A stretch of DNA of 36,275 nucleotides from a bacterium (GTDB lineage: Bacteria; Bacillota_I; Bacilli_A; RF39; UBA660): NCBI GenBank assembly GCA_963607925.1, contig CAVDFY010000024.1:10082-46356 (forward strand). Direction: 5' to 3'. The translations under genes and the position numbers were made by a program. Below, one piece after another: positions 3,194-22,613 of this stretch; positions within the stretch are counted from its first letter, which is position 1, and each line of letters opens with the position of its first letter. The notes beneath the pieces were generated by a model, which searched no databases, was not told the DNA's origin, and saw only the letters and a program-made list of their open reading frames with translations.

Positions 3194-4303
3194 ATGAAAA
3201 ATAAAAAAGGTTTTACATTAGTTGAGTTATTAGCTGTAATAGCAATACTTGCAATACTTGTAGTACTTGCGATTCCAAATATTATAAGTATGGTAGAAAA
3301 ATCAAGAAAAAATATTGCTGAAACGAGTGCAAAAAGTTTGGTTAGCACAGCTAAAAACTATTATATTAAAAGTGAAATGAATGGAAAAACTATTGAAGAA
3401 ATTGATTTAACAGATCCAGATTTTGAATATACAGGAGAAAGAGTTACAAAAGGAAAACTTACAATGAATAAGGATGGAAGTAGTTATGGAAAAATATATA
3501 TCCGTGGTTATTGTGTAAGTATTAAAAGTAGCGGAGACATATCTAGTGAAAAAGTAGATGCGGAAAATTGCAATCTAGCACCAGAAATGATAACTTTTAC
3601 TCTAAATGGTAATTCTTTTAAAGTAGAAGAAGGCACAACATTAGAAAACTTTTTAAAAAATCTTGATGAAAATCAAGGATTGACAGTTATAAAAGATTCA
3701 ATTACACAATACTATTTTGAAGATTATGATGGTGCAATAATAATTGGTGATAACAACACTAATAAAATAATGGACTTAAAGAACAGAAAAATAAGTGCTG
3801 ATGATGCATATACTACATTATTTGTTTCAATAACAAAAAATTTTTTATGGGATGATATAACTAGCGACAATTATGTTCCTATTTTATATCAATATACATA
3901 TGGTAATACAACAAGCAAAACTATGGTAGTAATATGTTCTAAAAATGATACTTTTGCAGATCTAGCAGATGCCGTTTATCCAGTTCAAATACTATACTTT
4001 CTTGGAGTTAATTATGAGTATTCTGATGTAAATAAAGTTTCAAGTTATTCAGGTAGAGAATTAGTTAATGATTATATCATTGGATATAAAGCAGGATTGA
4101 AATATCATAAATCAAATAATAACGCTGGAAGTGATTTTCATGTTTTTGAAGAATTCTTAGATGGTCAAGGAAATACAATTAAGTTATCTGACAAAGTCAC
4201 AACAAAAAGTTCAGGATTAATTACAGGGAAATATCACATTGTATCAAAAGATACATCATTTGAAGATGCAAAGAAAGAAGCTGTTAATAATCTTAGTAAA
4301 TAA
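3194..4303 (+). CDS. Large (369 aa) type IV pilin / pseudopilin-like protein with a C-terminal module of unknown function
   Basis: Class III signal peptide and methylation motif MKNKKGFTLVELLAVIAILAILVVLAIPN (cleavage after G, with E at +5). The remaining ~330 aa have no motif I recognise, and include a Cys pair (GYCVS...AENC). Confidence 0.85.
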   Translation: MKNKKGFTLVELLAVIAILAILVVLAIPNIISMVEKSRKNIAETSAKSLVSTAKNYYIKSEMNGKTIEEIDLTDPDFEYTGERVTKGKLTMNKDGSSYGKIYIRGYCVSIKSSGDISSEKVDAENCNLAPEMITFTLNGNSFKVEEGTTLENFLKNLDENQGLTVIKDSITQYYFEDYDGAIIIGDNNTNKIMDLKNRKISADDAYTTLFVSITKNFLWDDITSDNYVPILYQYTYGNTTSKTMVVICSKNDTFADLADAVYPVQILYFLGVNYEYSDVNKVSSYSGRELVNDYIIGYKAGLKYHKSNNNAGSDFHVFEEFLDGQGNTIKLSDKVTTKSSGLITGKYHIVSKDTSFEDAKKEAVNNLSK

Positions 4304-6468: not shown

Positions 6469-7152
6469 ATGTATATGTGGATTTATAGTGAAAGTGATTA
6501 CTTAGAAAAAAAAGATTCACTTGCTATATCAACATCTAGTTCAACACCAGTAAAAATAACATTAAAAGATAATAAAGTTGTAAACGTAGAATATCCAAAA
6601 GATGGTAATGAATATGCATCATCTATATATAAATTATTTCCAAGAACTATCGCAAAACAGGTATTAAATTTTGATAATGAAAAAAATATAAATAAACTTT
6701 ATAATGAGATGAGTACTAAGAAAAATAAATATTATAATTATTTAAATATGGATATGGGAAAACTTACTATAGATGATATAAGTTATGGGAATCATATATT
6801 TAATATCACTAAAAGAAAAGAATGTATAACATTAAGTTTAGATATATATATAAATAATAAATATAGATTAATTACTGCATATAAAGCATTTAAACCAAAT
6901 CAAATATGTACAATGGAACTAAGATACACTAAATCAGTAGAAGGAACATATAATTATAATATAATGGAAATAATAAAACATAGTAGTGATGCAAATTTAT
7001 TACAATTTAATAGTGATAACATGTCGGTATATGAAATACTTTCAGGAAAAGGTCAATACTTTATAACAGATGATGACAATAAACATTTAAAAGAGTTCTT
7101 AAAAAGTATAAATGTAGATTTAGCTCTTTGTGCAGAACCAGATTATAAGTGA
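6469..7152 (+). CDS. Hypothetical protein; the 5' end is uncertain because the frame is open from 6292
   Basis: ORF of 227 aa from the first ATG. The same frame has 59 further sense codons upstream without an in-frame ATG, while a good SD+ATG at 6311-6325 is in another frame (see findings). Confidence 0.55.
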   Translation: MYMWIYSESDYLEKKDSLAISTSSSTPVKITLKDNKVVNVEYPKDGNEYASSIYKLFPRTIAKQVLNFDNEKNINKLYNEMSTKKNKYYNYLNMDMGKLTIDDISYGNHIFNITKRKECITLSLDIYINNKYRLITAYKAFKPNQICTMELRYTKSVEGTYNYNIMEIIKHSSDANLLQFNSDNMSVYEILSGKGQYFITDDDNKHLKEFLKSINVDLALCAEPDYK

Positions 7153-8650: not shown

Positions 8651-8679
8651 ATTATATATGAGAATTAATATTATTTCAA
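8651..8679 (-). promoter_or_regulatory. Consensus sigma-A promoter for the ATPase gene
   Basis: Minus strand: TTGAAA (8674-8679), a 17-nt spacer, then TATAAT (8651-8656). SD AAGAGG lies upstream of ATG 8623. Confidence 0.7.
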
Positions 8680-8687
8680 CAAAATTA

Positions 8688-8716
8688 TTGTTATTATTTT
8701 TAAAATTTGTTATACT
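8688..8716 (+). promoter_or_regulatory. Divergent promoter for the small pilin (and proS)
   Basis: TTGTTA (8688-8693), a 17-nt spacer, then TATACT (8711-8716), with TG at the extended -10 position. Confidence 0.55.
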
Positions 8717-8738
8717 TTCTTATAGTAGGAGTGCATGT

Positions 8739-9164
8739 ATGAAGAATAAAAATGGTTTTACAATGATTGAACTTTTAGCAGTATTAGGGATACTTGCATT
8801 ACTAGCAGTAGTAATAGTTCCAAATGTATCATCTTTAAGAAAAAAAACTTTAGAACAAACTTATGAAAATAGAGTAAATCAAGTTAAAATTGCTGCGAGA
8901 GAATGGGGAAGCGACAACCTAATAAGTGTTCCATCTTCAGTTTCAAAAGAATACACAGACCAAAGTACATGTGATAGTGATTGTGTTTGCGTAACAATAC
9001 AAGAATTAATAACAGAAGGATATCTAACTGGAGATAAAAATGAAAAAAAGACTTTAACAAATCCAATAACAAACAAAGAAATGAATAATTTATTAGTATG
9101 TATAAGATATGATACAAATAATATAGAAACAAGAGAGTTAGTTTCATACATTGCAGGTGAGTAA
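8739..9164 (+). CDS. Type IV pilin / ComGC-like pseudopilin (141 aa)
   Basis: MKNKNGFTMIELLAVLGILALLAVVIVPN prepilin motif. SD AGGAG lies 8 nt upstream of ATG 8739; the track start at 8658 adds a non-pilin leader and has no SD. The C-terminal part has a Cys cluster (CDSDCVCV) and the ELITEGYL motif common in Firmicutes pilins. Confidence 0.85.
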   Translation: MKNKNGFTMIELLAVLGILALLAVVIVPNVSSLRKKTLEQTYENRVNQVKIAAREWGSDNLISVPSSVSKEYTDQSTCDSDCVCVTIQELITEGYLTGDKNEKKTLTNPITNKEMNNLLVCIRYDTNNIETRELVSYIAGE

Positions 9165-9165
9165 C

Positions 9166-10866
9166 ATGAGAATGTCTAATAATTTTTTTATAACTCGTAA
9201 AGAATTTCCAAATGATGAAGATTGTATTTCAGCTAAATTATTAATTAAAAGTGGAATGATTTATAAAAATGATAATGGAATTTACTCATACTTACCAATA
9301 GGATTAAAAGTACTAGAAAATATTAAAAATATCATTAGAGAAGAAATGAAAAAAAATAATGCTGACGAAGTATTAATGCCATCTCTAGTTGATAGAAGTG
9401 TTTTTGAACTTACTAATAGAGAAAAAGTATTTGGAAAAGAAATATTTAATATATCAGGTAGAAATAATAAAGAGTATTCTCTTTGTCCAACACACGAAGA
9501 ATTATTTGCTCTACTAGTAAGAAATAAAATTAGAAGTTATAAAGATCTACATTTTACATTATTTCAATTAAGTAATAAGTTTAGAGATGAAGTTCATCCA
9601 GAGTATGGACTTATAAGAAAAAAAGAGTTTTATATGGCTGATGCTTATAGTTTTGATGCTGATGAAAGTGGTCTTGATATAAGCTATGATAAAATGTATC
9701 AAACTTTCAATAATATATTTAGAAGATTAAATATAGATACAATGGTTGTAAGAGCAGATCCTGACTCAATGAAAGGAACTTCTAGTGAAGAATTTCAAGT
9801 AATTTGTGATTATGGTGATAACGAAGTAGTAAAATGCAAAAAATGTAGTTATAGTACAAATATTGAAGACGCTTCATCATACGATTCATATACAAAAGAA
9901 GAACATCAATTAAAAAGTACACCAAATAAAAAAACAATAAAAAGCTTAACTGAGTTCTTACAAGTTCCAGCAAAGAACATTATAAAATCTCTTATAATAA
10001 AAGTAGACGAAACATATAAAATGATATTATTAAGAGCTGATGCTGAATTAAATGTTAATAAATTAAAAAAAGTATTAAAATGTGACAATATAGAAATACC
10101 AAGTGAGTATGAACTTGATAGAATGGGTACAAAAATAGGATATATTGGTCCTGTTAAAACAACAATGACAGTAATTGCAGATAATGAAGTTAAAAGCATG
10201 TATAATGCAATTTGCGGAAGCAATAAAGAAAATTATCATTATAAAAATGTAACCCCAGGTATAGACTTTAAAGTAAATAAATATGCAAATATTAAGTTGT
10301 TTAATGAAAATTCTAAGTGTCCTAGATGTAAAAGTGAATGCGAAATAATAAGAGGAATTGAAGTTGGACATATATTTAAACTTGAAACAAATTATAGTGA
10401 AACATATAATTTAAGATATTTAGATGAAGTAAATGAATTAAATTATGTACATATGGGTTCATATGGAATAGGTCTTGATAGATGCATCTCAGCAATAGTA
10501 GAAAAACATAATGATGAAAAAGGAATAATTTGGCCTATGGAAGTAGCTCCATATAAAGTAGGTATTGTCATAATAAATGTTAATGATAAAGAAACTTATA
10601 AATATGCAAGTAATCTTTATAAAAAATTAGAACAAATTGGTATAGATACAATTCTAGATGACAGAAAAGAAACAGTTGGTATTAAATTCAATGATATGGA
10701 CTTAATGGGTATACCTATTAGAATAACAATAGGAAGAAAACTAGAAGAAGGAATGGTAGAATTCAAATTAAGAGATGAAGAACAAAGCCATGACATAGAT
10801 AGAGATGTAATTATAAAAACAATATTAGATACCATTAATTCAAAAAGTAAAAAATTATATAATTAA
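9166..10866 (+). CDS. proS: Prolyl-tRNA synthetase, bacterial type with INS editing domain (copy 1)
   Basis: N-terminus MRMSNNFFITRKEFPNDEDCISAKLLIKSGMIYKNDNGIYSYLPIGLKVLENI. Motif 2 region FRDEVHPEYGLIRKKEFYMADAYSF. Motif 3 GSYGIGLDRCISAIVE. The central insertion is ~180 aa. ATG 9166 follows SD AGGTGAG, which lies inside the last pilin codons. Confidence 0.9.
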   Translation: MRMSNNFFITRKEFPNDEDCISAKLLIKSGMIYKNDNGIYSYLPIGLKVLENIKNIIREEMKKNNADEVLMPSLVDRSVFELTNREKVFGKEIFNISGRNNKEYSLCPTHEELFALLVRNKIRSYKDLHFTLFQLSNKFRDEVHPEYGLIRKKEFYMADAYSFDADESGLDISYDKMYQTFNNIFRRLNIDTMVVRADPDSMKGTSSEEFQVICDYGDNEVVKCKKCSYSTNIEDASSYDSYTKEEHQLKSTPNKKTIKSLTEFLQVPAKNIIKSLIIKVDETYKMILLRADAELNVNKLKKVLKCDNIEIPSEYELDRMGTKIGYIGPVKTTMTVIADNEVKSMYNAICGSNKENYHYKNVTPGIDFKVNKYANIKLFNENSKCPRCKSECEIIRGIEVGHIFKLETNYSETYNLRYLDEVNELNYVHMGSYGIGLDRCISAIVEKHNDEKGIIWPMEVAPYKVGIVIINVNDKETYKYASNLYKKLEQIGIDTILDDRKETVGIKFNDMDLMGIPIRITIGRKLEEGMVEFKLRDEEQSHDIDRDVIIKTILDTINSKSKKLYN

Positions 10867-10876
10867 TAAAAATAAC

Positions 10877-10918
10877 TTAAAAAAGAAAAAAATAAATCAA
10901 ATATTTTTTCTTTTTTAA
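10877..10918 (+). terminator. AT-rich hairpin / probable terminator after proS
   Basis: Perfect 15-bp inverted repeat TTAAAAAAGAAAAAA / TTTTTTCTTTTTTAA with a 12-nt loop. The 3' arm is itself a T-run, and the stem is thermodynamically weak (a single G:C pair). Confidence 0.45.
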
Positions 10919-10931
10919 TTATCTATTGTTA

Positions 10932-10960
10932 TTGAAAAAAAGTGATTAAAATGTTACTAT
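10932..10960 (+). promoter_or_regulatory. Promoter P2 of surface-protein unit 1
   Basis: TTGAAA, a 17-nt spacer, then TACTAT with an upstream TGT (extended -10). It is homologous to the promoter at 15677-15705. Confidence 0.6.
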
Positions 10961-10984
10961 TAATTAAAGAATAGGTGAATTAAC

Positions 10985-12991
10985 ATGAAAATAAAAAAAC
11001 AATTATTATTTTTGTTATTAATATTGATATTTCCATTAATACTAAATGCAGAAATGTCTGTAGATTATAGTAAAACTATAAAGCATGCAAATAATTACAT
11101 AAAGGATTTTCAATATAATAGACTATATATTGTAAGTGGAACAACAGATTTTTCAGTACCATTTGAATACAAAAACAACGCCCTAACAGTAAATAGTTCA
11201 TTTAAAGCAGGTGGCCTTTTAAATATACAAGAATTTGATATATCAAAGGGTGAAAGTAATAGTTCTTATCTATTCTCAGGAAGAGATTATTTTACTATGA
11301 CTGAATCTGGAAGTGACAGTGTCTATGTAATTGAAAAAGGAGCAAACACTAATTATACTCTTAAACCAAAAACAGAAAAAAGTGGTGTAAGAGTTACAGA
11401 ATATGTAAAAGAAAAAATAAGAGTAACAGGAACAGGTGAATATGTAAATCCTTGGGTATTTATTAAACCTGAATATAAAGTAAATATAACATTAGTAAAT
11501 GCTAATTCAAATGGAGCAACTTCAATAGTAGAAACTCTAGAAGTTGAAGATAAAGAATATCCAATAAGTGCTAATAAAAGTTACTTCAAATATAAAGGAG
11601 ATATGACTTGTAGCGGTTATTATGAAGAAGTAAGCGTTAACGGAAATAAACTTGTAATAAAAGGATTAACAAGCGATTTAAAATGTACAATTAAATATAC
11701 TCCAGATAACTTCAAAGTAACTGTTAATGCAACTAATGCAACAGTAGAAGGAAACGAAAAATCATTCCCAGCTGAAACTAATGGTACAGTAAAAGTAACA
11801 GGAACAGAAGGATATGCTCTAAGTAGCTTATCATGTACAAACTCACAATCTGGAAGCTATAAAGGTGGAAATTTAATTATAACTAACATAACCAATGATA
11901 CTGTTTGTACAATGACTTTCACTAATCCTGGAAAATCTTTCTCATATACAGGTTCAACAGCATCATATACAGTTCCATATACTGGATATTACAAATTAGA
12001 AGCATACGGAGCACAAGGAAATGGTTCAGGTGGAAAAGGTGGATATGCAAGTGAAATAATACTTATGACAAAGAACACTTCATTAACTATAAATGTAGGC
12101 GGACAAAACGGATATAATGGAGGAGGCTCTGGATATTATAATGGTGGAGGAGCTTCAACTATTAAAAAAAGTTCAACTATTATTTTAGCAGGTGCCGGTG
12201 GTGGAGGAGGTAACTCTGGAACTGCTGGTGGAAAAGGTTCAGGATCAGGTGGTGCATCATCAGGTGGAAGCGGAACAAATGGTGGACCGGGTAGTGCTGG
12301 AACAAATGGAGCCGGAGGAGGCTCAGGATATAATTATTCATATCAAACAAACTGTAGTAGTTGTTACTATGGTTCAAATACTTGCACAGGTGGATATGTA
12401 AGTACAAACTGTAGTAGTTGTTATTATGGAAGAAACACATGTAGTTATGGCTGTGATACAGAATGCGCTTGGTGCCAATATGATTGTACTGGCCCATATG
12501 GAAGTAGTTTTACAGTAAATGGATGGTGTCCTTGTACTAATAATGGTGGAAGTGGAAGCTGTAGTAATCTAGGATGCTTAAATAGAAGCGGATATGTAAG
12601 AACATCAACAACTTATAATGGACGAAGTAACTTAAGTTCAGGATGCAGCGCAACAAGTGCAACTAGTATTACCGTTATAGGAATTTGTTCATGGAATGGT
12701 GGCTGCTCATCTGGATACAGTTGTAGTAAATGCGGAACAAATAGAACAAACTGTAGTAGTTGCTATTATGGTTCAAATACATGCAGTTATGGTTGCGATA
12801 GTGTTTGGGATAGTTGTAAAACTGGATCAAATACATGTAGCTATGGTTGTGATACAAAAACAGTTGCATATAAATCAGGTTACGGTGGAACAAATAAATT
12901 TGATTCATCAGCAACAGAAAAACAAAATCTTGAAGGACAAAGAACTGGAAATGGACAAATAAAAATTAGTTTTTACAAAGAAAGTGAATAA
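10985..12991 (+). CDS. Secreted protein (668 aa): shared N-terminal module, two Ig-like/B-repeat-like segments, and a glycine-rich domain interrupted by a Cys-rich repeat region
   Basis: Sec signal peptide MKIKKQLLFLLLILIFPLILNA. Residues ~35-162 align at ~45% identity with the N-termini of the next two large proteins. FSYTGSTASYTVPYTGYYKLEAYGAQGNGSGGKGGYASE...VGGQNGYNGGGSG...AGAGGGGGNSG matches the bacterial glycine-rich-protein pattern. There are 26 Cys in ~210 aa, with the repeated motif NCSSCYYGxNTC(S)YGCD. Confidence 0.85.
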   Translation: MKIKKQLLFLLLILIFPLILNAEMSVDYSKTIKHANNYIKDFQYNRLYIVSGTTDFSVPFEYKNNALTVNSSFKAGGLLNIQEFDISKGESNSSYLFSGRDYFTMTESGSDSVYVIEKGANTNYTLKPKTEKSGVRVTEYVKEKIRVTGTGEYVNPWVFIKPEYKVNITLVNANSNGATSIVETLEVEDKEYPISANKSYFKYKGDMTCSGYYEEVSVNGNKLVIKGLTSDLKCTIKYTPDNFKVTVNATNATVEGNEKSFPAETNGTVKVTGTEGYALSSLSCTNSQSGSYKGGNLIITNITNDTVCTMTFTNPGKSFSYTGSTASYTVPYTGYYKLEAYGAQGNGSGGKGGYASEIILMTKNTSLTINVGGQNGYNGGGSGYYNGGGASTIKKSSTIILAGAGGGGGNSGTAGGKGSGSGGASSGGSGTNGGPGSAGTNGAGGGSGYNYSYQTNCSSCYYGSNTCTGGYVSTNCSSCYYGRNTCSYGCDTECAWCQYDCTGPYGSSFTVNGWCPCTNNGGSGSCSNLGCLNRSGYVRTSTTYNGRSNLSSGCSATSATSITVIGICSWNGGCSSGYSCSKCGTNRTNCSSCYYGSNTCSYGCDSVWDSCKTGSNTCSYGCDTKTVAYKSGYGGTNKFDSSATEKQNLEGQRTGNGQIKISFYKESE

Positions 12992-12995
12992 AAAT

Positions 12996-15635
12996 ATGAA
13001 GAATAAAAAGGAAAAATTATTACTATTATTATTGCTACTGCCATTCAGTATAAATGCTGTGGTAAGAAATAATTATGACATAACAAAAGAAAATACAAAT
13101 CTTTATATTAATGATTTTGATAGAAATGATGTATACATTATAAAAAGTACTTCTTCTCTTAATGTTCCGTTTATATATAACAACGGAACATTGAGCGTAG
13201 ATACATATTTCAAAAATGGTGGTTTATTAAATAGATATGAATTTTTAATATCTAAATCTTTAGAAAATGATACATATTTATTTAATGGAAATAATTATTG
13301 GACATTAACATCAAGTGGAGATAAAGTATATATGATTGATAATTCTGCCACAGATAATATATCTCTTCAAGAAAAAACAGTATTAAGTGGTGGAAGAGTA
13401 ACTGAATACATAAAAGAAGAAACTGGAGTAAGTGGAAGTGGAAAATATACAGACCCATGGGTATTTATTGAAAGATATAAAGTAACAGCAAAAAGTTCAA
13501 ATACATCATATGGAACAGTTACACCAAGTGAAAAGTATGTAAATAAAGGTGAAACACTAACATTTAATCTTTCACCAGCAAGTGAATATGAATATAGCAA
13601 CAATGATTGTGGAGCAACATATTCAAACGGGAAATTAATTCTATCAAATATTCAAGCAGATAAAAATTGTATAGTAAATTTCAAAAAGAAAGTTTACAAA
13701 TTAACTTTCAACAATAATGGTGGAAGCGAATGTACAAGCCAAACAGCAACAAGTGGTAATGAATGGGGAACACTTTGTACACCAAAAAGAACAAATTATA
13801 GTTTCTTAGGCTGGTTTACATCAGCGACTGGCGGAACAGAAGTAACTTCGAAAACAATAGCTACAAAAGACCAAACTGTGTATGCACATTGGGAATATAC
13901 AACATTAAAATTAACCTATGATAATAATGGTGGAAGTGGATGTACAAGCAAGAACTTTGTTAAAAATCAAAAAGTAGGAACTTTATGTGTTCCAACGAAA
14001 GCATCAAATGAGTTTGCAGGATGGTACACATCAGCAACAGGTGGAACAGAAGTAACAAGTGACACTGTATTAAGTGAAGCAACAACAGTATATGCACACT
14101 GGACACCAACATGCTTTGCGTTTACACCATCAACAGGAACAATAACAGATTATTATGATTATAAAGGAAACGATTCTTCAAACGGAAGTTGTTCAAGAAG
14201 CGTTACAATACCAAGTACAATAAGTGGTAAAACTGTATTGAAAATAGGCAATTACTCATTTGAAGAAAAAAATATAACATCAGTAACAATACCAAATACA
14301 GTAACTGAAATAGGGTATGGTGCTTTTGAAAGTAATAAATTAACAACAGTGACAATACCTTCTAGTGTAACTACAATAAAAAGCAGTGCATTTGGATACA
14401 ATAACATTACAACTCTTACATTAAATGAAGGATTAGTAACTATAGGAGACTCAGCATTTACAGAAAATGCAATTAAGGCATTGAAAACACCAAGTACAAT
14501 GGTATCAATAGGATATAGTGCATTCTACAAGAATAAAATTACAAGTCTTACATTAAACGAAGGATTAACTTCAATTGAAGGATATGCCTTTTATAATAAT
14601 AGCATTCCAAGTGTAAAAGCGCCTAGCACTCTAGTATCAATAGGGTACTCAGCATTTGAAGAAAATAATATATCTTCATTAACTTTAAATAGTGGCTTAA
14701 AAACTATAAATGATTTTGCATTTTTTAAAAACAAAATACCAAGTGTTACAATACCTACATCTGTAACATATTTAGGAAATGCATCATTTAATGATAATAA
14801 ACTTCCGGATAGTACAGCAACTCTTTATAAAAGAAACAGTGATGGAAGTGAAGATAAAACAACAGTAGTTAGTTATGGTGGTTCTAAAAGATCAGGAGTT
14901 GTTGTGCCATCAACTGTAAAAACAATAGATAATTATGCATATTATTATAATAATATAACTAGTATAACAATACCAACAAGTGTTACAAAAGTTGGTAATC
15001 ATGGAGTGGCATTTAATAATTTAAGTACAATAAACATTCCAAGTTCAGTTACATATATAGACTATAGAGGATTTGCAAATAACTGGGCTAGCACAATAAA
15101 TTATACATCAAGTAACTTAACATATTTAGGAAATGCAGCATTTAATGGTAATTCAACAAGCACAACAAATGCATTAAAATATAAGAAAAATGCAGATGGA
15201 ACAGATGACACATCAGTAGTAGTCAGCTATTCAGCAAATAGAACAAATGTTACATTACCAAGTACTGTAAAAGAAATAGCAGATAGTGCATTCTTTAATG
15301 CATTTATATATAGTATTACGATTCCTGAGGGAGTAACATATATAGGTTCAGGAGCATTTAGATGGTGCTACTTATCTAATGTAACAATTCCAAGTACAGT
15401 AACTGAAATAGGATATGATGCATTTGAAAAATATTATGACAGTAGTTGGAGTGAAAATTTAAACCCACTTACTAAAATAATAAATAAAACAGGTAAATCA
15501 TTTAAATGGCATACAATAATAAATGGTGAATATTACTATGATTCTAGTTTAAGTGATGATTACTACTATAAAGATTATGAATTTGAAACAGGTACGGTTA
15601 AAAATCCTAGAGGAAACATAACTGTAACAAAATAA
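12996..15635 (+). CDS. Secreted protein (paralog A): shared N-terminal module, InlB-type B-repeats (Listeria-Bacteroides repeat) and BspA-type leucine-rich repeats
   Basis: Signal peptide MKNKKEKLLLLLLLLPFSINA (the alternative GTG start at 12984 overlaps the upstream stop). Two copies of Y(K/T)LT(F/Y)xNNGGS(E/G)CTS...GW(F/Y)TSATGGTEVTS...VYAHW. There are about 20 repeats of the type IPxSVTxIGxxAFxxNxIT. I see no LPXTG, SLH, choline-binding or C-terminal TM anchor. Confidence 0.88.
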   Translation: MKNKKEKLLLLLLLLPFSINAVVRNNYDITKENTNLYINDFDRNDVYIIKSTSSLNVPFIYNNGTLSVDTYFKNGGLLNRYEFLISKSLENDTYLFNGNNYWTLTSSGDKVYMIDNSATDNISLQEKTVLSGGRVTEYIKEETGVSGSGKYTDPWVFIERYKVTAKSSNTSYGTVTPSEKYVNKGETLTFNLSPASEYEYSNNDCGATYSNGKLILSNIQADKNCIVNFKKKVYKLTFNNNGGSECTSQTATSGNEWGTLCTPKRTNYSFLGWFTSATGGTEVTSKTIATKDQTVYAHWEYTTLKLTYDNNGGSGCTSKNFVKNQKVGTLCVPTKASNEFAGWYTSATGGTEVTSDTVLSEATTVYAHWTPTCFAFTPSTGTITDYYDYKGNDSSNGSCSRSVTIPSTISGKTVLKIGNYSFEEKNITSVTIPNTVTEIGYGAFESNKLTTVTIPSSVTTIKSSAFGYNNITTLTLNEGLVTIGDSAFTENAIKALKTPSTMVSIGYSAFYKNKITSLTLNEGLTSIEGYAFYNNSIPSVKAPSTLVSIGYSAFEENNISSLTLNSGLKTINDFAFFKNKIPSVTIPTSVTYLGNASFNDNKLPDSTATLYKRNSDGSEDKTTVVSYGGSKRSGVVVPSTVKTIDNYAYYYNNITSITIPTSVTKVGNHGVAFNNLSTINIPSSVTYIDYRGFANNWASTINYTSSNLTYLGNAAFNGNSTSTTNALKYKKNADGTDDTSVVVSYSANRTNVTLPSTVKEIADSAFFNAFIYSITIPEGVTYIGSGAFRWCYLSNVTIPSTVTEIGYDAFEKYYDSSWSENLNPLTKIINKTGKSFKWHTIINGEYYYDSSLSDDYYYKDYEFETGTVKNPRGNITVTK
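13173..14284 (+). repeat. Copy 1 of a 1112-bp perfect direct repeat
   Basis: A line-by-line comparison with 16295-17406 (offset 3122) found no mismatch. The first mismatches are at 13172/16294 and 14285/17407. Confidence 0.9.
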
Positions 15636-15664
15636 GAAATCAGTATTGATTTCTTATTTTTATT
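15634..15664 (+). terminator. Intrinsic terminator of unit 1
   Basis: AAGAAATCA gtat TGATTTCTT followed by ATTTTTATT. Confidence 0.8.
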
Positions 15665-15676
15665 AATAAAACAATA

Positions 15677-15705
15677 TTGAAAAATAATAATTAAAATGTT
15701 ACTAT
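15677..15705 (+). promoter_or_regulatory. Promoter P3 of surface-protein unit 2 (duplicate of P2)
   Basis: TTGAAA, a 17-nt spacer, then TACTAT. The block ATTAAAATGTTACTATTAA is identical to that in P2. Confidence 0.6.
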
Positions 15706-15727
15706 TAAATAGATAATAGGAGGATAT

Positions 15728-16102
15728 ATGAAAAAAGGATTAACTGTTTTTTTAATTTTATTTTTATTAGTAGGATGTAATAAGGAAACAACAAAGACAA
15801 ATGAAAAACCAGAAGAAACAAAATATTTAACTAAGATGGAAATGAATGAAAAATTATTTGGCTATGCAACTGAGATTTATAATGCTAAAACATATACAAA
15901 AGTTGAAAAGACTGATGGAGAATACTTTATATCATTAAAAAACCTAAAAGAAAAATATAACTATGATATATCAATGTTTTTAAATCCAACTACTTACGAT
16001 AAATGTGATCAAGAGAAGACTGGTGTATCATTTGATATAGATAATGTTAGAAATTTAGAATATAAAGATGCTCCTATATTAATAATGATATACTGCGATT
16101 AG
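15728..16102 (+). CDS. Small lipoprotein (124 aa), first cistron of unit 2
   Basis: Lipobox LLVGC (MKKGLTVFLILFLLVGCNKE). Strong SD AGGAGG. It lies 12 nt upstream of paralog B. Confidence 0.8.
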   Translation: MKKGLTVFLILFLLVGCNKETTKTNEKPEETKYLTKMEMNEKLFGYATEIYNAKTYTKVEKTDGEYFISLKNLKEKYNYDISMFLNPTTYDKCDQEKTGVSFDIDNVRNLEYKDAPILIMIYCD

Positions 16103-16114
16103 GAGAAAAATATT

Positions 16115-18886
16115 ATGAAGAAAAATAAATTGTTGATAACATTAATAACCATATTATTTTTACCATTTAGTATAAATGCTGTGGTAAGAAATAATTATGA
16201 TATAACAAAAGAAAACACAAATCTTTATATTAATGATTTTAGTAGAAATAATATATATATTATTAAAAGTACTTCTTCATTTAACGTACCATTCATATAT
16301 AACAACGGAACATTGAGCGTAGATACATATTTCAAAAATGGTGGTTTATTAAATAGATATGAATTTTTAATATCTAAATCTTTAGAAAATGATACATATT
16401 TATTTAATGGAAATAATTATTGGACATTAACATCAAGTGGAGATAAAGTATATATGATTGATAATTCTGCCACAGATAATATATCTCTTCAAGAAAAAAC
16501 AGTATTAAGTGGTGGAAGAGTAACTGAATACATAAAAGAAGAAACTGGAGTAAGTGGAAGTGGAAAATATACAGACCCATGGGTATTTATTGAAAGATAT
16601 AAAGTAACAGCAAAAAGTTCAAATACATCATATGGAACAGTTACACCAAGTGAAAAGTATGTAAATAAAGGTGAAACACTAACATTTAATCTTTCACCAG
16701 CAAGTGAATATGAATATAGCAACAATGATTGTGGAGCAACATATTCAAACGGGAAATTAATTCTATCAAATATTCAAGCAGATAAAAATTGTATAGTAAA
16801 TTTCAAAAAGAAAGTTTACAAATTAACTTTCAACAATAATGGTGGAAGCGAATGTACAAGCCAAACAGCAACAAGTGGTAATGAATGGGGAACACTTTGT
16901 ACACCAAAAAGAACAAATTATAGTTTCTTAGGCTGGTTTACATCAGCGACTGGCGGAACAGAAGTAACTTCGAAAACAATAGCTACAAAAGACCAAACTG
17001 TGTATGCACATTGGGAATATACAACATTAAAATTAACCTATGATAATAATGGTGGAAGTGGATGTACAAGCAAGAACTTTGTTAAAAATCAAAAAGTAGG
17101 AACTTTATGTGTTCCAACGAAAGCATCAAATGAGTTTGCAGGATGGTACACATCAGCAACAGGTGGAACAGAAGTAACAAGTGACACTGTATTAAGTGAA
17201 GCAACAACAGTATATGCACACTGGACACCAACATGCTTTGCGTTTACACCATCAACAGGAACAATAACAGATTATTATGATTATAAAGGAAACGATTCTT
17301 CAAACGGAAGTTGTTCAAGAAGCGTTACAATACCAAGTACAATAAGTGGTAAAACTGTATTGAAAATAGGCAATTACTCATTTGAAGAAAAAAATATAAC
17401 ATCAGTGACAATACCAAATACAGTAACTGAAATAGGATATAATGCATTTTATAAAAATAGTATAACATCATTAATTATTCCATCAAGTGTTAAGCAAATT
17501 AATATTTCAGCATTCTATCAAAATAATATATCTACATTAACATTAAATGAAGGCTTAACATATATTGGAAGCAGTGCATTTTATCAAAATAAACTAACAA
17601 CGCTTAAAACACCAAGTACATTAACTGAAATAGGAGATTCAGCATTTTCAGAAAATAGTATAGCAACATTAACATTAAATGAAGGCTTAACATATATTGG
17701 AGGCAGTGCTTTTTACAAAAATAAGTTAACAACACTAAAGACACCAAGCACATTAACTAAGATATATTATTCAGCATTTGAAAAAAATAATATAGCAACA
17801 TTAACATTAAATGAAGGCTTAACATATATTGGAGGCAGTGCTTTCTCTTATAATAAGTTAACAACAGTAAAAACTCCTTCAACGTTAACAGAATTAGGTT
17901 CATACGCTTTCTCTAACAATCAAATAACTTCACTAACTTTAAATGATAAATTAACCACAATAGGAGACTTTGCATTTTACTACAACAAAATTCCAACAGT
18001 TACAATACCAAAATCAGTTACAAGTTTAGGAAATGCATCATTCAATAACAATCAGCTTCCAGACAGCATAGCTACATTCTATAAAAGAAATAGCGACGGA
18101 AGTGAAGATAAAACAACTGTTGTAAGTTATGGAGGTTCAAATAGAACTGACGTTATTGTGCCAAGCACAACTAAAACAATAAATCCTTATGCATATTATA
18201 GTAATTATATAAGTAAAATTACTCTTCCAGAAGGATTAACTAAAATTGATTCAGATGGTATAGCATTTAATAGTTTAAGCGAGATAACATTACCATCAAC
18301 TGTTAATTATCTTGGAGGATGGGCATTATATGCAAATGATATTAGAAATATAGATTATAATAATACTGTAATAACATATATTGGAACAGCTGCAATGAAT
18401 GCAAATAATTTAGATGATTCTCAAGCATTTGTATATGCTAAAAATTCTGATGGAACAGATGATAAAACAAAATTAATAAGTTATGGTGGAGCAAAAACGA
18501 CTGGTGTTGTAGTACCAAATAGTGTTAAAGAAATAGGTGTTTATGCATTCTTTTCAGACTGGATAAGGTCTATAGTATTCCCAGAAGGACTAGAAACAAT
18601 TGGCTATTCAGCATTTCGCGCATGCAGTTTAAGTGGAAGTATAACAATTCCATCAACTGTAACATCCATTGACAGTAGTGCATTTATAAAAACAACAAGA
18701 GATAGTTACTACAATACTGGATTAACAGAAATAGTAAATAAAACTGGCAAATCATTTAAATGGCATACAATAATTAATAATGATTATTACTATTACAAAG
18801 ATTACCCAACAGTATACCAAAAAACATTTGAATTTGAGACTGGTACTGTAGTAAATCCAGTAGGAGACGTCACTATTTCAAAATAA
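16115..18886 (+). CDS. Secreted protein (paralog B): shared N-terminal module, InlB-type B-repeats and an expanded BspA-type LRR region
   Basis: Signal peptide MKKNKLLITLITILFLPFSINA. Residues ~60-430 are identical to paralog A. The LRR half is diverged and contains three tandem 44-aa units. The C-terminal block NKTGKSFKWHTIIN...FE(F)ETGTV is shared with A. Confidence 0.88.
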   Translation: MKKNKLLITLITILFLPFSINAVVRNNYDITKENTNLYINDFSRNNIYIIKSTSSFNVPFIYNNGTLSVDTYFKNGGLLNRYEFLISKSLENDTYLFNGNNYWTLTSSGDKVYMIDNSATDNISLQEKTVLSGGRVTEYIKEETGVSGSGKYTDPWVFIERYKVTAKSSNTSYGTVTPSEKYVNKGETLTFNLSPASEYEYSNNDCGATYSNGKLILSNIQADKNCIVNFKKKVYKLTFNNNGGSECTSQTATSGNEWGTLCTPKRTNYSFLGWFTSATGGTEVTSKTIATKDQTVYAHWEYTTLKLTYDNNGGSGCTSKNFVKNQKVGTLCVPTKASNEFAGWYTSATGGTEVTSDTVLSEATTVYAHWTPTCFAFTPSTGTITDYYDYKGNDSSNGSCSRSVTIPSTISGKTVLKIGNYSFEEKNITSVTIPNTVTEIGYNAFYKNSITSLIIPSSVKQINISAFYQNNISTLTLNEGLTYIGSSAFYQNKLTTLKTPSTLTEIGDSAFSENSIATLTLNEGLTYIGGSAFYKNKLTTLKTPSTLTKIYYSAFEKNNIATLTLNEGLTYIGGSAFSYNKLTTVKTPSTLTELGSYAFSNNQITSLTLNDKLTTIGDFAFYYNKIPTVTIPKSVTSLGNASFNNNQLPDSIATFYKRNSDGSEDKTTVVSYGGSNRTDVIVPSTTKTINPYAYYSNYISKITLPEGLTKIDSDGIAFNSLSEITLPSTVNYLGGWALYANDIRNIDYNNTVITYIGTAAMNANNLDDSQAFVYAKNSDGTDDKTKLISYGGAKTTGVVVPNSVKEIGVYAFFSDWIRSIVFPEGLETIGYSAFRACSLSGSITIPSTVTSIDSSAFIKTTRDSYYNTGLTEIVNKTGKSFKWHTIINNDYYYYKDYPTVYQKTFEFETGTVVNPVGDVTISK
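16295..17406 (+). repeat. Copy 2 of the 1112-bp perfect direct repeat
   Basis: See 13173-14284. Confidence 0.9.
17534..17929 (+). repeat. Three tandem in-frame 132-bp units (two LRRs each)
   Basis: Units start at 17534, 17666 and 17798 with ACATTAACATTAAATGAAGGCTTAACATATATTGGA. The 36-nt unit starts are identical and the remainder of each unit is diverged. Confidence 0.85.
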
Positions 18887-18918
18887 AGAAATTAACTAAA
18901 AATTAATTTCTTTTTTAT
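18886..18918 (+). terminator. Intrinsic terminator of unit 2
   Basis: AAGAAATTAA / TTAATTTCTT 10-bp stem, 7-nt loop and a T-run. Confidence 0.8.
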
Positions 18919-18993: not shown

Positions 18994-20229
18994 ATGAAAC
19001 CAATAAATGTAACAAGTGAGATAAATCCACTAAAAAAAGTATTAGTTCATAGACCTGGTAGAGAATTATTGAATCTTACACCGGATAGTCTTGGTAGATT
19101 ACTATTTGATGATATTCCATACTTACCAGTTGCCCAAGAAGAACATGATGAATTCGTAAGAATCTTAAAAGATAATGGAGTAGAAGTAGTATATTTAGAA
19201 GATTTGATGACTGAAGTACTAGATTTAGATCCTGAAATTAGAGAAAGATTTATTACTCAATTTATCTATGAAGCAGGTATTCGTACTCCAAAATATAGAG
19301 GACTTGTATATGAATACTTATCATCAATAGAGAATAATAGACTTCTAGTTTTAAAAACTATGGAAGGAATTATTAATAATGAAGTAATTAAAGCTAAAGC
19401 TAAAAAAGGTAAAAGTTTAGTAGACTCAATCAAAGAAGATACTCAATTTGTAGTGGATCCTATGCCAAACTTATACTTTACTCGTGACCCATTTGCATCA
19501 ATCGGAAATGGTGTATCACTAAATAGAATGTACTCAGTTACTCGTAATAGAGAAACAATATATGCTGAATATATATTTGAGTATCATCCAGATTATAAAG
19601 GACAAGTAGATAAGTATTTTGATAGATACAGTGCTTATCATATTGAAGGTGGAGATGTTCTTAATTTAAATGAACATATCTTAGCAATAGGAATTAGTCA
19701 AAGAACATGTGCTGATGCTATAGAAGAATTAGCATATAAAGTATTTGCTGATAAAGATGCTAAAATTGATACTATCTTAGCATTTACTATTCCAGAATGT
19801 CGTGCCTTCATGCATTTAGACACTGTATTTACTCAAATAGATGTAGATAAATTTACTTATCATCCAGGAATTATGGGAACACTTAAAGTATTTGAAATAA
19901 CTAGTGATGGTGAAGGAGGACTTAATGTTAAAGAAAGAAATGCTTCACTTGAAAAGATATTAGAAGATTATCTTCATAGAAAAATAACTTTAATACCATG
20001 TGCTGGTGGAGATAAGATTGGCGCTGAACGTGAGCAATGGAATGATGGAAGCAATACATTGTGTATAGCTCCAGGAGTAGTTATTGTTTATGATAGAAAT
20101 AATATCACTAATGAATTATTAAGAGACAATGGAATTAAAGTTCTTGAAATGCATAGTGCAGAGTTATCTAGAGGTAGAGGTGGTCCAAGATGTATGTCAA
20201 TGCCTTTAGTAAGAGCTGACAAGCCTTGA
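18994..20229 (+). CDS. arcA: Arginine deiminase
   Basis: MKPINVTSEINPLKKVLVHRPGRELLNLTP N-terminus, FTRDPF, HLDTVFT, and the catalytic Cys in GGPRCMSMPL. Confidence 0.93.
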   Translation: MKPINVTSEINPLKKVLVHRPGRELLNLTPDSLGRLLFDDIPYLPVAQEEHDEFVRILKDNGVEVVYLEDLMTEVLDLDPEIRERFITQFIYEAGIRTPKYRGLVYEYLSSIENNRLLVLKTMEGIINNEVIKAKAKKGKSLVDSIKEDTQFVVDPMPNLYFTRDPFASIGNGVSLNRMYSVTRNRETIYAEYIFEYHPDYKGQVDKYFDRYSAYHIEGGDVLNLNEHILAIGISQRTCADAIEELAYKVFADKDAKIDTILAFTIPECRAFMHLDTVFTQIDVDKFTYHPGIMGTLKVFEITSDGEGGLNVKERNASLEKILEDYLHRKITLIPCAGGDKIGAEREQWNDGSNTLCIAPGVVIVYDRNNITNELLRDNGIKVLEMHSAELSRGRGGPRCMSMPLVRADKP

Positions 20230-22613
20230 AAAAAAATAGAAGTATTGTTGTAGCTTTAGGTGGAAATGCTCTTGGGAATAATCCTGAAGAGCAACTAAAG
20301 CTAGTTAAGAACACTGCTAAATCAATCGTAGATTTAGTTAGTGAAGGATATAATGTAGTTGTAAGCCACGGAAATGGACCTCAAGTGGGAATGATTAACC
20401 TAGCATTTGAGGAATCTAAAGACACACCAAATATGCCATTCGCAGAATGTGGTGCGATGAGTCAAGGATACATAGGTTATCACTTACAACAAGCAATTCA
20501 AACTGAATTGAAAGCAAGGGATATCAATAAAGGATGTGCATCAGTAGTTACACAAGTACTTGTTGATAAAAAAGACCCAGCTTTTAATAAACCAGATAAA
20601 CCTGTTGGTTCGTTTTATACCAAAAAAGAAGCAGATAAAATTGCTTCTGAAAGAGGTTATACGTTCACAGAAGATGCTGGAAGAGGCTATAGGAGAGTTG
20701 TACCTTCTCCTAAACCTATAGAAATAGTAGAACTTGATTTAATTAAAGACCTTTTAGATCAAGGAAATATTGTTATAGTATCAGGAGGAGGAGGAATACC
20801 AGTTGTTAAGGAAGGTGGTTCTTTAAAAGGAGTAGCAGCTGTTATTGATAAAGATAGATCTAGCTCACTTTTAGCAAGAAAACTAGATGCAGATATCTTA
20901 TTAATACTTACTACTGTAGAAAAAGTTTCACTTAAATATAACACAGTCGACCAAATTAATATTCATAATTTAGAAGTATCTGAAGCAAAAAAATACATCA
21001 AATCTGGTGAGTTCGCTAAAGGAAGTATGCTTCCAAAAGTAGAATCATGTATAGATTTTTGTGAATACAAAGAAGGTGGCGTTGGTATTATCACATCACT
21101 TGATTGTGCCAAAGAGGCTATCAATGAAGAAACAGGTACAATAATTAGAAATATGAAAAAGGGAGGCAAAAAAATGGCTAAAACAAGAAAAAAAGAAAGA
21201 ATGTCAGCCTTTACAATTATCTTCCTACTTATTATTGCTCTTGCATTAATTACTTTAATTCTTCCAAATGCTGCATTTGATGAAGCAGGAACAATAATTA
21301 ATGGTAGTGGAGTAGTTAAAGCAAAAATATCAGATGTTTTACTATCACCAATACTAGGTTTTGGAAGTGCTGTAGACGTATGTGTATTCGTTCTTATACT
21401 TGGAGGATTCTTACAAGTAGTAACTAAATCAGGGGCTCTAGAAAATGGAATTAAGGTCTTAGTTAAAAAATTAAAAGGAAATGAATTAGTATTAATTCCA
21501 ATACTAATGATAATATTCTCAATAGGTGGAACAACCTATGGAATGTTAGAAGAAACAGTTGGTTTCTATGCATTACTTGCATTTACAATGGTAGCTGCAG
21601 GTATGGATACAATCGTTGCATCAGCAACTGTATTATTAGGTGCTGGTAGTGGTGTTTTAGGTTCAACTATTAACCCATTTGCAACAGGAGCAGCTGTAGC
21701 AGCTTTACCAGAGGGAATGACTGTTAATCAAGGCGTTATTATAGCTTTAGGTACAGTACTTTGGTTAGTATCTTTAGGAATTTCAATGTTCTTTGTAATG
21801 AGATATGCTAAAAAAGTAAAAGCTGACAAAGGTTCGACTTTCTTATCATTACAAGAGCAAAAGAAGATGGAAAAATTCAAAGAAAAAGATGAATCAAAAG
21901 AAGTTACTCTTACTGGAAGACAAAAGGTTACCTTATGGATTTTCGGTATAACATTCTTAATTATGATTATTGGATTTATTCCATGGGAAGAATTTGGTAT
22001 TACATTCTTTAAGTCATGGACTGGCTGGTTAACAGGAACACCTCTTGGTGAGTGGTACTTTAATGAATCAGCAGCATGGTTCTTCATAATGGCAATTATT
22101 ATTGGTATTATTAATGGATTCAGTGCTAATCAAATTATAGATGAATTTATTGCAGGTGCAAGAGATATTTTATCAGTTGTACTTATCGTTGCAGTAGCAC
22201 GTGGTGTTTACTCATTAATGAGTCAAACATATTTAGATAACTACATTATTTATAATGTTGCAGATATGTTAAAAGGAACTCCAGTTGCATTATTTACTCC
22301 TTGTAACTATCTATTACATATAGTACTTTCAGTACTTGTACCATCTAGTTCAGGACTTGCAACTATTTCAACACCAATTATGGCTCCACTTGCAGCACAA
22401 CTTGGTTATAGTGTAGAAACAACAATTATGACTTTCGTTGCAGCAAATGGACTTGTAAACTTAATTACTCCAACATGTGGAGCAATTATGGGTGGTTTAG
22501 CTCTTGCTAAAGTTAATTACACAACTTGGGTTAAATGGGCTACTAAAGTTATAGTAACTATCGGTTTAGCTTCAATGGTAATCTTAACATTCGCATCAGT
22601 TATACTTTCTTAA
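20226..22613 (+). CDS. arcC: Carbamate kinase fused in frame to a YfcC/ArcD-type (DcuC-like) membrane transporter
   Basis: The TTG start overlaps the arcA stop (TTGA). Residues 1-308 are carbamate kinase (IVVALGGNAL, SHGNGPQVG, VSGGGGIP, GSMLPKV). There is no stop codon after the kinase domain. SD AAGGGAGG and ATG 21174 precede MAKTRKKERMSAFTIIFLLII... and ~11 predicted TM segments typical of the putative arginine/ornithine antiporter family. Confidence 0.85.
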   Translation: MKKNRSIVVALGGNALGNNPEEQLKLVKNTAKSIVDLVSEGYNVVVSHGNGPQVGMINLAFEESKDTPNMPFAECGAMSQGYIGYHLQQAIQTELKARDINKGCASVVTQVLVDKKDPAFNKPDKPVGSFYTKKEADKIASERGYTFTEDAGRGYRRVVPSPKPIEIVELDLIKDLLDQGNIVIVSGGGGIPVVKEGGSLKGVAAVIDKDRSSSLLARKLDADILLILTTVEKVSLKYNTVDQINIHNLEVSEAKKYIKSGEFAKGSMLPKVESCIDFCEYKEGGVGIITSLDCAKEAINEETGTIIRNMKKGGKKMAKTRKKERMSAFTIIFLLIIALALITLILPNAAFDEAGTIINGSGVVKAKISDVLLSPILGFGSAVDVCVFVLILGGFLQVVTKSGALENGIKVLVKKLKGNELVLIPILMIIFSIGGTTYGMLEETVGFYALLAFTMVAAGMDTIVASATVLLGAGSGVLGSTINPFATGAAVAALPEGMTVNQGVIIALGTVLWLVSLGISMFFVMRYAKKVKADKGSTFLSLQEQKKMEKFKEKDESKEVTLTGRQKVTLWIFGITFLIMIIGFIPWEEFGITFFKSWTGWLTGTPLGEWYFNESAAWFFIMAIIIGIINGFSANQIIDEFIAGARDILSVVLIVAVARGVYSLMSQTYLDNYIIYNVADMLKGTPVALFTPCNYLLHIVLSVLVPSSSGLATISTPIMAPLAAQLGYSVETTIMTFVAANGLVNLITPTCGAIMGGLALAKVNYTTWVKWATKVIVTIGLASMVILTFASVILS

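Follow-up and report, generated by a model that had tools for sequence, protein, structure and literature searches.

A fast-evolving island encoding three Sec-exported, anchor-less, modular adhesin-like proteins lies in the window analysed here, a 36,275-nucleotide (nt) stretch of DNA (positions 10,082 to 46,356 of contig CAVDFY010000024.1, assembly GCA_963607925.1) from an uncultured gut Bacillota of the RF39 lineage with low guanine-plus-cytosine (GC) content. The three proteins, termed P1, P2 and P4, belong to one large family, whose hallmark is a module of ~140 amino acids (aa) placed directly behind the signal peptide and ahead of tails that differ widely from member to member. What is new here is the domain family; the adhesin-type architectures that it heads are otherwise familiar, and the system as a whole is not of a categorically new kind. 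Four co-directional genes make up the island, the third of which encodes a small predicted lipoprotein:

10985-12991, + strand: P1, 668 aa
12984-15635, + strand: P2, 883 aa when read from GTG 12984, which overlaps the P1 stop codon
15728-16102, + strand: gene of the 124-aa predicted lipoprotein, 12 nt upstream of P4
16115-18886, + strand: P4, 923 aa

For P2, ATG 12996 is the likelier start, because in relatives (contigs L003 and L007; L numbers denote related loci throughout) the gene begins there, 5 nt after the P1 stop codon.

One module, many tails

The N-termini of P1, P2 and P4 have the same plan, a lysine-rich and hydrophobic signal peptide ending in xNA, with the module directly behind it. 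The positions of the modules, two of them as matched by a hidden Markov model (HMM), and the domain architectures are as follows:

11051-11482, + strand: module of P1 (HMM match aa 24-166, E 8.5e-46)
13065-13484, + strand: module of P2 (HMM match aa 28-167, E 6e-45)
16178-16606, + strand: module of P4, the sequence used for the AlphaFold2 model
P1 architecture: signal peptide aa 1-22; module 23-166; B-repeat-like beta domains ~167-305; ALK/LTK-like glycine-rich region ~306-450; Cys-rich repeats ~451-640; C-terminal beta strand
P2 architecture: signal peptide; module; beta domain; two Flg_new domains; ~18-20 BspA-type leucine-rich repeats (LRRs); C-terminal cap
P4 architecture: signal peptide; module aa 22-164; beta domain; two Flg_new domains aa 235-369; ~20 BspA-type LRRs; C-terminal cap

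Over 144 aa, the P1 module is 49-50% identical to those of P2 and P4. The alignment of P1 with P4 extends across 251 aa (40% identity, E 1e-42), and the shared part therefore comprises the signal peptide, the module and a beta domain of ~70 aa. An earlier interpretation made from the letters alone, hereafter the sequence-only reading, had described three open reading frames (ORFs; 668, 883 and 923 aa by the present count) that each start with a Sec signal peptide followed by a common module of ~130 aa and ~45% identity. The ORFs, the leaders and the module all stand; length and identity of the latter were underestimated.

Behind the module, P2 and P4 carry the InlB-type B-repeats and the ~20 BspA-type LRRs that had been proposed for them. 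Pfam family LRR_5 (PF13306) matches P2 in four stretches (E 9.9e-73) and P4 in five (E 9.1e-101), and each protein has two copies of Flg_new (PF09479; E ~4e-24, scores of 84.7 and 85.2 bits, cutoff 27); the NCBIfam model TIGR02543, the Listeria-Bacteroides repeat or InlB B-repeat, scores 42 bits against a cutoff of 20.95. The tail of P1 is of another kind. It gave no LRR_5 match in the Pfam hmmscan and combines 30 cysteines with a glycine-rich tract, so that by composition it is the Gly-rich and Cys-rich domain of the sequence-only reading. The Pfam "Gly_rich" assignment, which we took to mean the ALK/LTK glycine-rich domain (PF12810), is not reproduced by hmmscan, in which the P1 tail has no Pfam match at all even at E<=10. 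Yet the label is probably right in substance, because a profile of P1-type tails aligns with the Pfam-certified ALK_LTK_GRD region of the L012 protein (E 2e-20, with a high bias term of 73.6) and the two have motifs in common that do not consist of glycine alone (YxLExxGAQGG, GGxGGY, VGGxG, GYNGGG, GGGAT, AGGGGG). AlphaFold prediction of full-length P1 from its single sequence gave a predicted local distance difference test score (pLDDT) of 35 and was unusable.

The architecture of P2 and P4 invites comparison with the BspA/LrrA-type LRR proteins and with internalin B of Listeria. The resemblance lies in the LRR_5 arrays, the two Flg_new domains, Sec export, the adhesin-like character and the varying number of repeats. 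Internalin B consists of LRRs, a B-repeat and a GW anchor; P2 and P4 show the opposite order of domains, with the module first and the LRRs distal, and they have no GW, LPXTG, Por/type IX secretion (T9SS) or other known anchor. The described members of these families, for their part, lack the module.

The module itself is widespread. An exhaustive profile search recovered 346 representatives at 50% identity clustering, 202 of them at E<1e-10, in proteins of ~150 to 1,850 aa. In nearly all members the module spans residues ~20-160, and in 127 of 132 full-length matches it starts at residues 16-30, behind a signal peptide of classical type whose last residue is A or G. A Pfam scan of 147 relatives found more than 20 types of payload following it, most often Flg_new (71), Ephrin_rec_like (19), NCD3G (11) and Flg_new_2 (11), more rarely Gly_rich_2 (8), ALK_LTK_GRD (6), VWA (4), PT-HINT (3) and LRR_5 (2), with TNFR, TSP1, Big_2 and cadherin domains also on record. 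The notion of one N-terminal module presenting interchangeable payloads, the central proposal of the sequence-only reading, is thus well founded, and it is not refuted by the condition that the module be a known domain with a characterised role.

With 46 diverse examples of the module searched at E<=10, no Pfam or NCBIfam model gave a match. Sequence searches of the PDB with the module gave no match, and no description of it was found in the literature; weak hits to hemopexin and vitronectin were judged to be motif noise. In their source annotations members appear only as "hypothetical protein", "leucine-rich repeat protein" or "InlB B-repeat-containing protein". On these sequence grounds we consider the module, which is Cys-free and of alpha/beta type, a new sequence family and not a known characterised domain, and it could be supplied to annotation pipelines as a new domain model. 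Some members lie in spore-former contexts (GerA, CotE, SpoIIIAH), and the family therefore reaches beyond the "Mollicutes-like" group. The exhaustive search of representatives was needed for this survey: word-index similarity searches with the module or its alignment returned only four to seven matches, mostly chimeric assembly fragments.

The module may be part of a wider, poorly catalogued domain superfamily. This is suggested by a second, C-terminal domain in a protein of L022 (9893-11755; aa 526-619), which is also matched by the module HMM, and by the C-termini of P0029, P0032 and the L022 protein, which display module- or DUF1566-like motifs (LPTxxEL, FWTMT, GLRPVV, SVRC). These three C-terminal domains have no support in Pfam or the PDB.

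Gut "Mollicutes-like" Bacilli are, to our knowledge, common and uncultured, and we know of no account of how they attach to their host or to other microbes. The module family is apparently one main set of their large secreted proteins, P1 having 106 near-identical members in the databases, and it carries eukaryote-like binding modules in the absence of known anchoring signals. The constant domain, possibly together with a cognate lipoprotein, could offer a testable handle on surface display or on inter-bacterial antagonism. An expansion of secreted Flg_new proteins in host-associated, genome-reduced gut microbes has a precedent in the Flg_new-rich "adhesin-like proteins" of gut methanogens (PMC9723798), which, unlike the present ones, are archaeal.

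Turnover of the LRR genes

Two features of the island bear witness to its rapid evolution:

13173-14284, identical to 16295-17406, + strand: tract of 1,112 nt shared by P2 and P4 (end of the module, beta domain, both B-repeats, first LRR)
17336-18724, + strand: hypervariable LRR array of P4, with 66-nt and 132-nt periodicity (repeat families D1 and D2)

P2 and P4 cannot be counted as independent of each other. Their identity falls off on either side of the tract, and because sister-strain housekeeping genes differ by 5-8%, perfect identity over 1,112 nt speaks for recent gene conversion or duplication. The short-read contigs L003 and L007 end ~140 nt into the tract, as expected of a true repeat, and the order P1-P2-lipoprotein-P4 is read from one assembly that crosses this 1.1-kb perfect repeat. 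Several module-matching "proteins" in the databases (P0001-P0004) are pieces of chimeric or frameshifted assemblies with breaks in the P2/P4 repeat, a warning that metagenome assemblies must be read with care here.

Within these proteins it is the LRR payload that evolves fast. The LRR protein keeps 91-97% identity between strains in its module and stalk, and the flanking housekeeping genes of sister strains have 92-95% nt identity, while the LRR array of P4 shares only 62-70% aa identity with its orthologues and differs by insertions or deletions of 44-88 residues, that is, two to four repeats. At 90% identity, P4 forms a cluster by itself. P1 evolves at the background rate, and its 90%-identity cluster has 106 members, all the listed ones of 668 aa.

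The gene content of the island changes as well. In the sister lineage the order is proS, an insertion sequence (IS) 3-type transposase, P1, 368 bp, the lipoprotein gene and the gene of an LRR protein (835-879 aa). P2 survives there as these 368 bp, the 5' 108 nt of the gene joined to its 3' 277 nt, which points to an internal deletion of ~2.4 kb. In these sister strains (L025-L034) the insertion upstream of P1 is an IS3-family transposase pair (HTH_28 and rve), and a serine recombinase adjoins a shortened penicillin-binding protein (PBP) of 318 instead of 629 aa.

In the window the island occupies the slot between proS and the arginine deiminase gene arcA, and the same slot holds other members of the family in more distant relatives. 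L038 has P1 (666 aa), the lipoprotein and an LRR protein (836 aa) there. L036 has a 541-aa module-Flg_new protein along with three DUF285 proteins; the latter (11673-17466) are of ~620 aa, lack the module and have TasA/SipW-like "AWFS" N-termini or transmembrane anchors. In L040 the slot contains a 156-aa protein that consists of a signal peptide and the module only.

Comparison of the locus between strains had been advised in the sequence-only reading, and it reveals LRR turnover, the P2 deletion remnant and the IS element. The LRR paralogues diversify by gain and loss of repeats, deletion and gene conversion, which makes the rapid LRR turnover and paralogue conversion a candidate marker of strain-level variation. 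A scan of the locus for signs of phase variation found no homopolymer or dinucleotide tract of at least 8 and no obvious invertible-promoter repeats.

Proposed retention at the cell envelope

Neither P1 nor P2 nor P4 has an LPXTG-like motif in its last 60 residues, and the Pfam hits of these proteins and of the 147 relatives include no S-layer homology (SLH), choline-binding, LysM, GW, WxL or other wall-binding module. Among 105 family members of at least 400 aa, the close relatives P0005 and P0006 included, there is no LPXTG-like motif and no C-terminal transmembrane segment, the transmembrane scan covering these relatives and not P1, P2 and P4. The earlier assertion that the three proteins lack an anchor is upheld for LPXTG, SLH and choline-binding signals in the window proteins themselves, and for a C-terminal transmembrane segment in the scanned relatives, none of which was flagged. 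The host lineage appears to be wall-bearing. In L045 a sortase gene (12827-13450) lies ~1.7 kb downstream of a module protein; some carriers thus have sortases, though the family members lack LPXTG.

The explanation that we favour, at a probability of roughly 45%, is that the module keeps the protein at the envelope of the producing cell, either by lectin-like binding or through a co-encoded tethered protein, and that the tail binds external ligands. Cleavage by signal peptidase I would leave the module as the mature N-terminus, followed by a B-repeat-type stalk and then by the interchangeable C-terminal payload. As the base of this structure, the module could hold on to a glycopolymer of the envelope in a lectin-like manner, or it could dock to a protein tethered in the membrane, for which the 124-aa lipoprotein is a candidate, and the variable distal payload would be free to bind host or microbial ligands. 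In concept this recalls the S-layer and surface proteins with SLH domains, in which a conserved N-terminal, non-covalent anchor carries diverse C-termini; an anchoring role of the module is putative, and the two have no sequence or Pfam relationship.

A candidate docking partner is encoded in the island. The 124-aa ORF is predicted to be a bacterial lipoprotein: its N-terminus, MKKGLTVFLILFLLVGC, contains the lipobox LVGC with Cys17, and the lipobox cysteine is invariant in seven homologues. In its family a low-complexity linker joins the lipobox to a domain of ~80 aa in which two cysteines are conserved, and searches of Pfam and the PDB gave no match beyond the signal peptide. In L020 a homologue overlaps the stop codon of the module gene. 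In L042 (817-7368) four homologues alternate with three module proteins, the order being lipoprotein, module protein with a P1 tail, lipoprotein, module protein, lipoprotein, lipoprotein and a split P1-type gene. The last of these is present as two ORFs, one of 146 aa with the module and a Gly-rich one of 211 aa (the split being probable), and a DUF6273 protein is encoded 3 kb downstream of the array.

Genes for membrane-tethered partners are found 0-15 nt from module genes in L011, L020, L042 (twice), L044 (twice) and L046, and in L045 a lipoprotein gene follows the second module gene after 63 nt. Those of L011, L044 (two tandem cassettes) and L046 lie downstream of the module genes and specify unrelated lipoproteins or small proteins with a transmembrane anchor. 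By a rough test, a lipoprotein is encoded downstream in 6 of 25 module-gene clusters and in 15 of 216 clusters of the background (Fisher p=0.013), a count from a regular expression that overlooked two further cases. Pairing of module genes with lipoprotein genes, seen in several independent lineages, is thus recurrent, not universal; it is a stronger lead than a link to pilus genes, and as a partnership of the module it is promising but unproven.

A structural model bears on the lectin-like alternative. AlphaFold2 folded the P4 module, from a 46-sequence alignment, with a pLDDT of 93.5 and a predicted template modelling score (pTM) of 0.83, into an N-terminal helix and a beta-alpha-beta core with hairpins. 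The best Foldseek match in the PDB is the C-terminal domain of Legionella Lcl (8q4e; DUF1566), with E 0.4, probability 0.75 and a template modelling (TM) score of ~0.3, and the next ones are the C-type-lectin-like domains of langerin, CD23 and snaclec (TM 0.25-0.33); in the viral library BFVD a C-type lectin was matched with probability 0.69 and a DUF6273 protein with TMq 0.50. The Lcl domain has been called C-type-lectin-like by its authors. It has a similar order of secondary structures, and the E-20-W-32-R spacing of the module matches the Lcl fragment without gaps in our own reading of the alignment. In Lcl, however, the domain forms a trimeric head at the C-terminus, borne on a collagen stalk, whereas the module is N-terminal. 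A C-type-lectin-like fold of the module is, from the model, possible but unproven.

Several observations weigh against retention of the proteins by the module. None of its structural matches is significant (best E 0.4, TM 0.25-0.5, none at E<=0.001). Membership in DUF1566 (PF07603), an idea that came from a motif resemblance and the Foldseek top hit, was rejected, since hhalign against an alignment of 39 DUF1566 sequences, gathered with a consensus-like probe as bait only, gave probabilities of at most 0.13 in four modes. None of the 46 modules has a DUF1566 Pfam hit at E<=10, and the module HMM scores 5.1 bits on the Lcl fragment, within the range of shuffled sequences (maximum 7.3). Electrostatic anchoring finds no favour either: the isoelectric point of the module ranges from 4.8 to 9.1 and is not consistently basic, which makes for no uniform electrostatic anchor. 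The partner lipoproteins come from several families that are not related to each other, and none is seen in more than half of the lineages, which argues against one conserved docking partner; with partners so heterogeneous, one matched to the payload (immunity-like, a chaperone or a tether) fits about as well as a tether on which the module docks. An anchor without cargo, as the 156-aa module-only ORF of L040 would be, makes little sense. Finally, plain release of the proteins into the medium would be a simple alternative.

A more far-reaching claim may be built on these data, and we hold it to be doubtful. The module and its co-encoded tethered protein would form an undescribed two-component surface display, with swappable payloads (LRR, glycine-rich, ephrin-receptor-like, VWA, HINT), in genome-reduced gut Bacillota that lack sortase motifs, or else the two would make up a new class of polymorphic effector that depends on Sec and has a lipoprotein for immunity.

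The second half of this claim has a counterpart among the alternatives to retention. In a polymorphic effector-immunity system the module would be a trafficking or receptor-binding head, the C-terminus the active part and the adjacent tethered protein the immunity factor. Such systems are defined by a constant N-terminus joined to variable C-termini, PT-HINT domains are found in at least four members (3 of the 147 relatives, as well as in L016 and L045), and the arrangement of effector then small partner, with 0-15-nt spacing and duplication into tandem cassettes (L042, L044), is in keeping with them, as are partner families that vary between payloads and deletion remnants and truncated ORFs that resemble orphan cassettes. 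The module proteins of L016 (1516-4766) and L045 (4427-7900) end exactly at PT-HINT and are followed by a transmembrane-anchored protein of ~190 aa, an arrangement which may be toxin-immunity-like or may be a split gene. Yet most members, the window proteins among them, have no recognised toxin domain, and payloads are of adhesin type (LRR_5, Flg_new, VWA, Cys-rich repeats); in P1, P2 and P4 the Pfam scan found neither a toxin nor a PT-HINT domain. Moreover, LRR, Gly-rich and Flg_new payloads are all seen paired with members of one lipoprotein family, no partner gene accompanies P1, and the lipoprotein gene of the window is co-transcribed upstream of P4, not downstream. On balance this explanation is improbable.

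We give an equally low likelihood to the view that the proteins are freely secreted or loosely attached host-binding proteins, with the module as a lectin-like head for host or dietary glycans and the tails adding avidity or specificities. The closest structural neighbours of the module are C-type-lectin-like binding heads (Lcl, which binds glycosaminoglycans, langerin and viral C-type lectins), the module is rich in aromatic residues (15% F/W/Y), module-only proteins exist, and the whole family is devoid of recognised anchors. The fold assignment is not significant, however, and hhalign was negative; the module evolves slowly, whereas host-facing tips usually vary most, and the adjacent lipoprotein genes are left unexplained.

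Docking of the module to the neighbouring type IV or Com-type pilus, in the manner of a PilY1-type non-pilin adhesin, is very unlikely: the island does begin 118 nt past the pilin-proS unit with a T2SSE ATPase and a second prepilin nearby, but 13 of 15 distant loci lack pilus genes, as do the five further contexts L035 and L044-L047, pilus genes are interspersed with housekeeping genes in these compact genomes, several paralogues per locus would serve one pilus, and the leader is of Sec type, not prepilin type. The two distant loci with type IV pilus genes near a module gene are L008, where the module gene follows pilin, pilC and pilD with gaps of 12-13 nt, and L012, where it directly follows pilD; the pilin-proS adjacency of the window counts as one event only, because L036 and L040 share the same proS-arcA slot by descent. 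Pilus genes are hence an occasional, not a defining, companion of the module, and the general link suggested by the sequence-only reading falls away, being confined to the window group (the window, L036 and L040), L008 and L012. No PilY1-type domain was found among the Pfam hits of the window proteins or of the 147 relatives.

Predicted transcription signals and neighbouring genes

The following elements flank the genes of the island:

10880-10916, + strand: AT-rich hairpin and T run after proS (inverted repeat I7, 15-nt arms, 87% complementary)
10905-10980, + strand: promoter-like element, copy 1, 5' of P1 (TTGAAA 10932-10937, 17-nt spacer with TG, TACTAT 10955-10960)
15629-15660, + strand: perfect 14-nt hairpin and T run after P2 (inverted repeat I3, 100% complementary)
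15650-15725, + strand: promoter-like element, copy 2, 5' of the lipoprotein-P4 unit (TTGAAA 15677, TACTAT ending 15705)
18882-18916, + strand: hairpin and T run after P4 (inverted repeat I4, 93% complementary)

The two 76-nt promoter-like copies form the direct repeat D11 and are 75% identical; their promoter activity is inferred from these motifs. The AT-rich hairpins are likely terminators of the pilin-proS unit, of P2 and of P4, respectively; a GC-based terminator scan missed them, and they were found as inverted repeats. At the level of sequence, the duplicated element and the hairpins after proS, P2 and P4 lend support to the two transcription units proposed earlier, and the start of the locus, put at ~120 nt past the pilin-proS unit, agrees with a measured proS-to-P1 gap of 118 nt.

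The window has a GC content of ~28%, and its genes are readable throughout with genetic code 11. Near-identical contigs are labelled in the databases as metagenome-assembled genomes of a "Mollicutes bacterium" or "Bacilli bacterium", and the lineage is also labelled Tenericutes. On the 5' side the island is preceded by a prepilin gene (8658-9164), proS, a T2SSE-type ATPase, a PBP with a PASTA domain and a second prepilin-like ORF, and on the 3' side it is followed by arcA. The prepilin ORF overlaps the start of proS (9151), and the two therefore form one transcription unit. Listed at 168 aa, it probably starts at an inner Met, its relatives having 141 aa. In NCBIfam it is most similar to ComGC and ComGE, and the "pilus" may accordingly be a pseudopilus for competence. 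The second prepilin-like protein, of 369 aa and with an N_methyl motif (3194-4303), is missing from the otherwise syntenic L003.

Three further observations concern genes outside the island. A 227-aa ORF at 6469-7152 has no Pfam hit and may be truncated or frameshifted in the window, because it equals only part of a 400-aa ORF in L003 and L007. Two prolyl-tRNA synthetase genes are present (9151-10866 and 27124-28545), one with the bacterial editing domain and one of ProRS-C_1 type, and both are conserved in relatives. Lastly, a 795-aa ORF (20226-22613) fuses a carbamate kinase (AA_kinase) with a DcuC-type anaerobic C4-dicarboxylate carrier; L026 has separate genes of 255 and 528 aa in its place, and the fusion is kept in other relatives.

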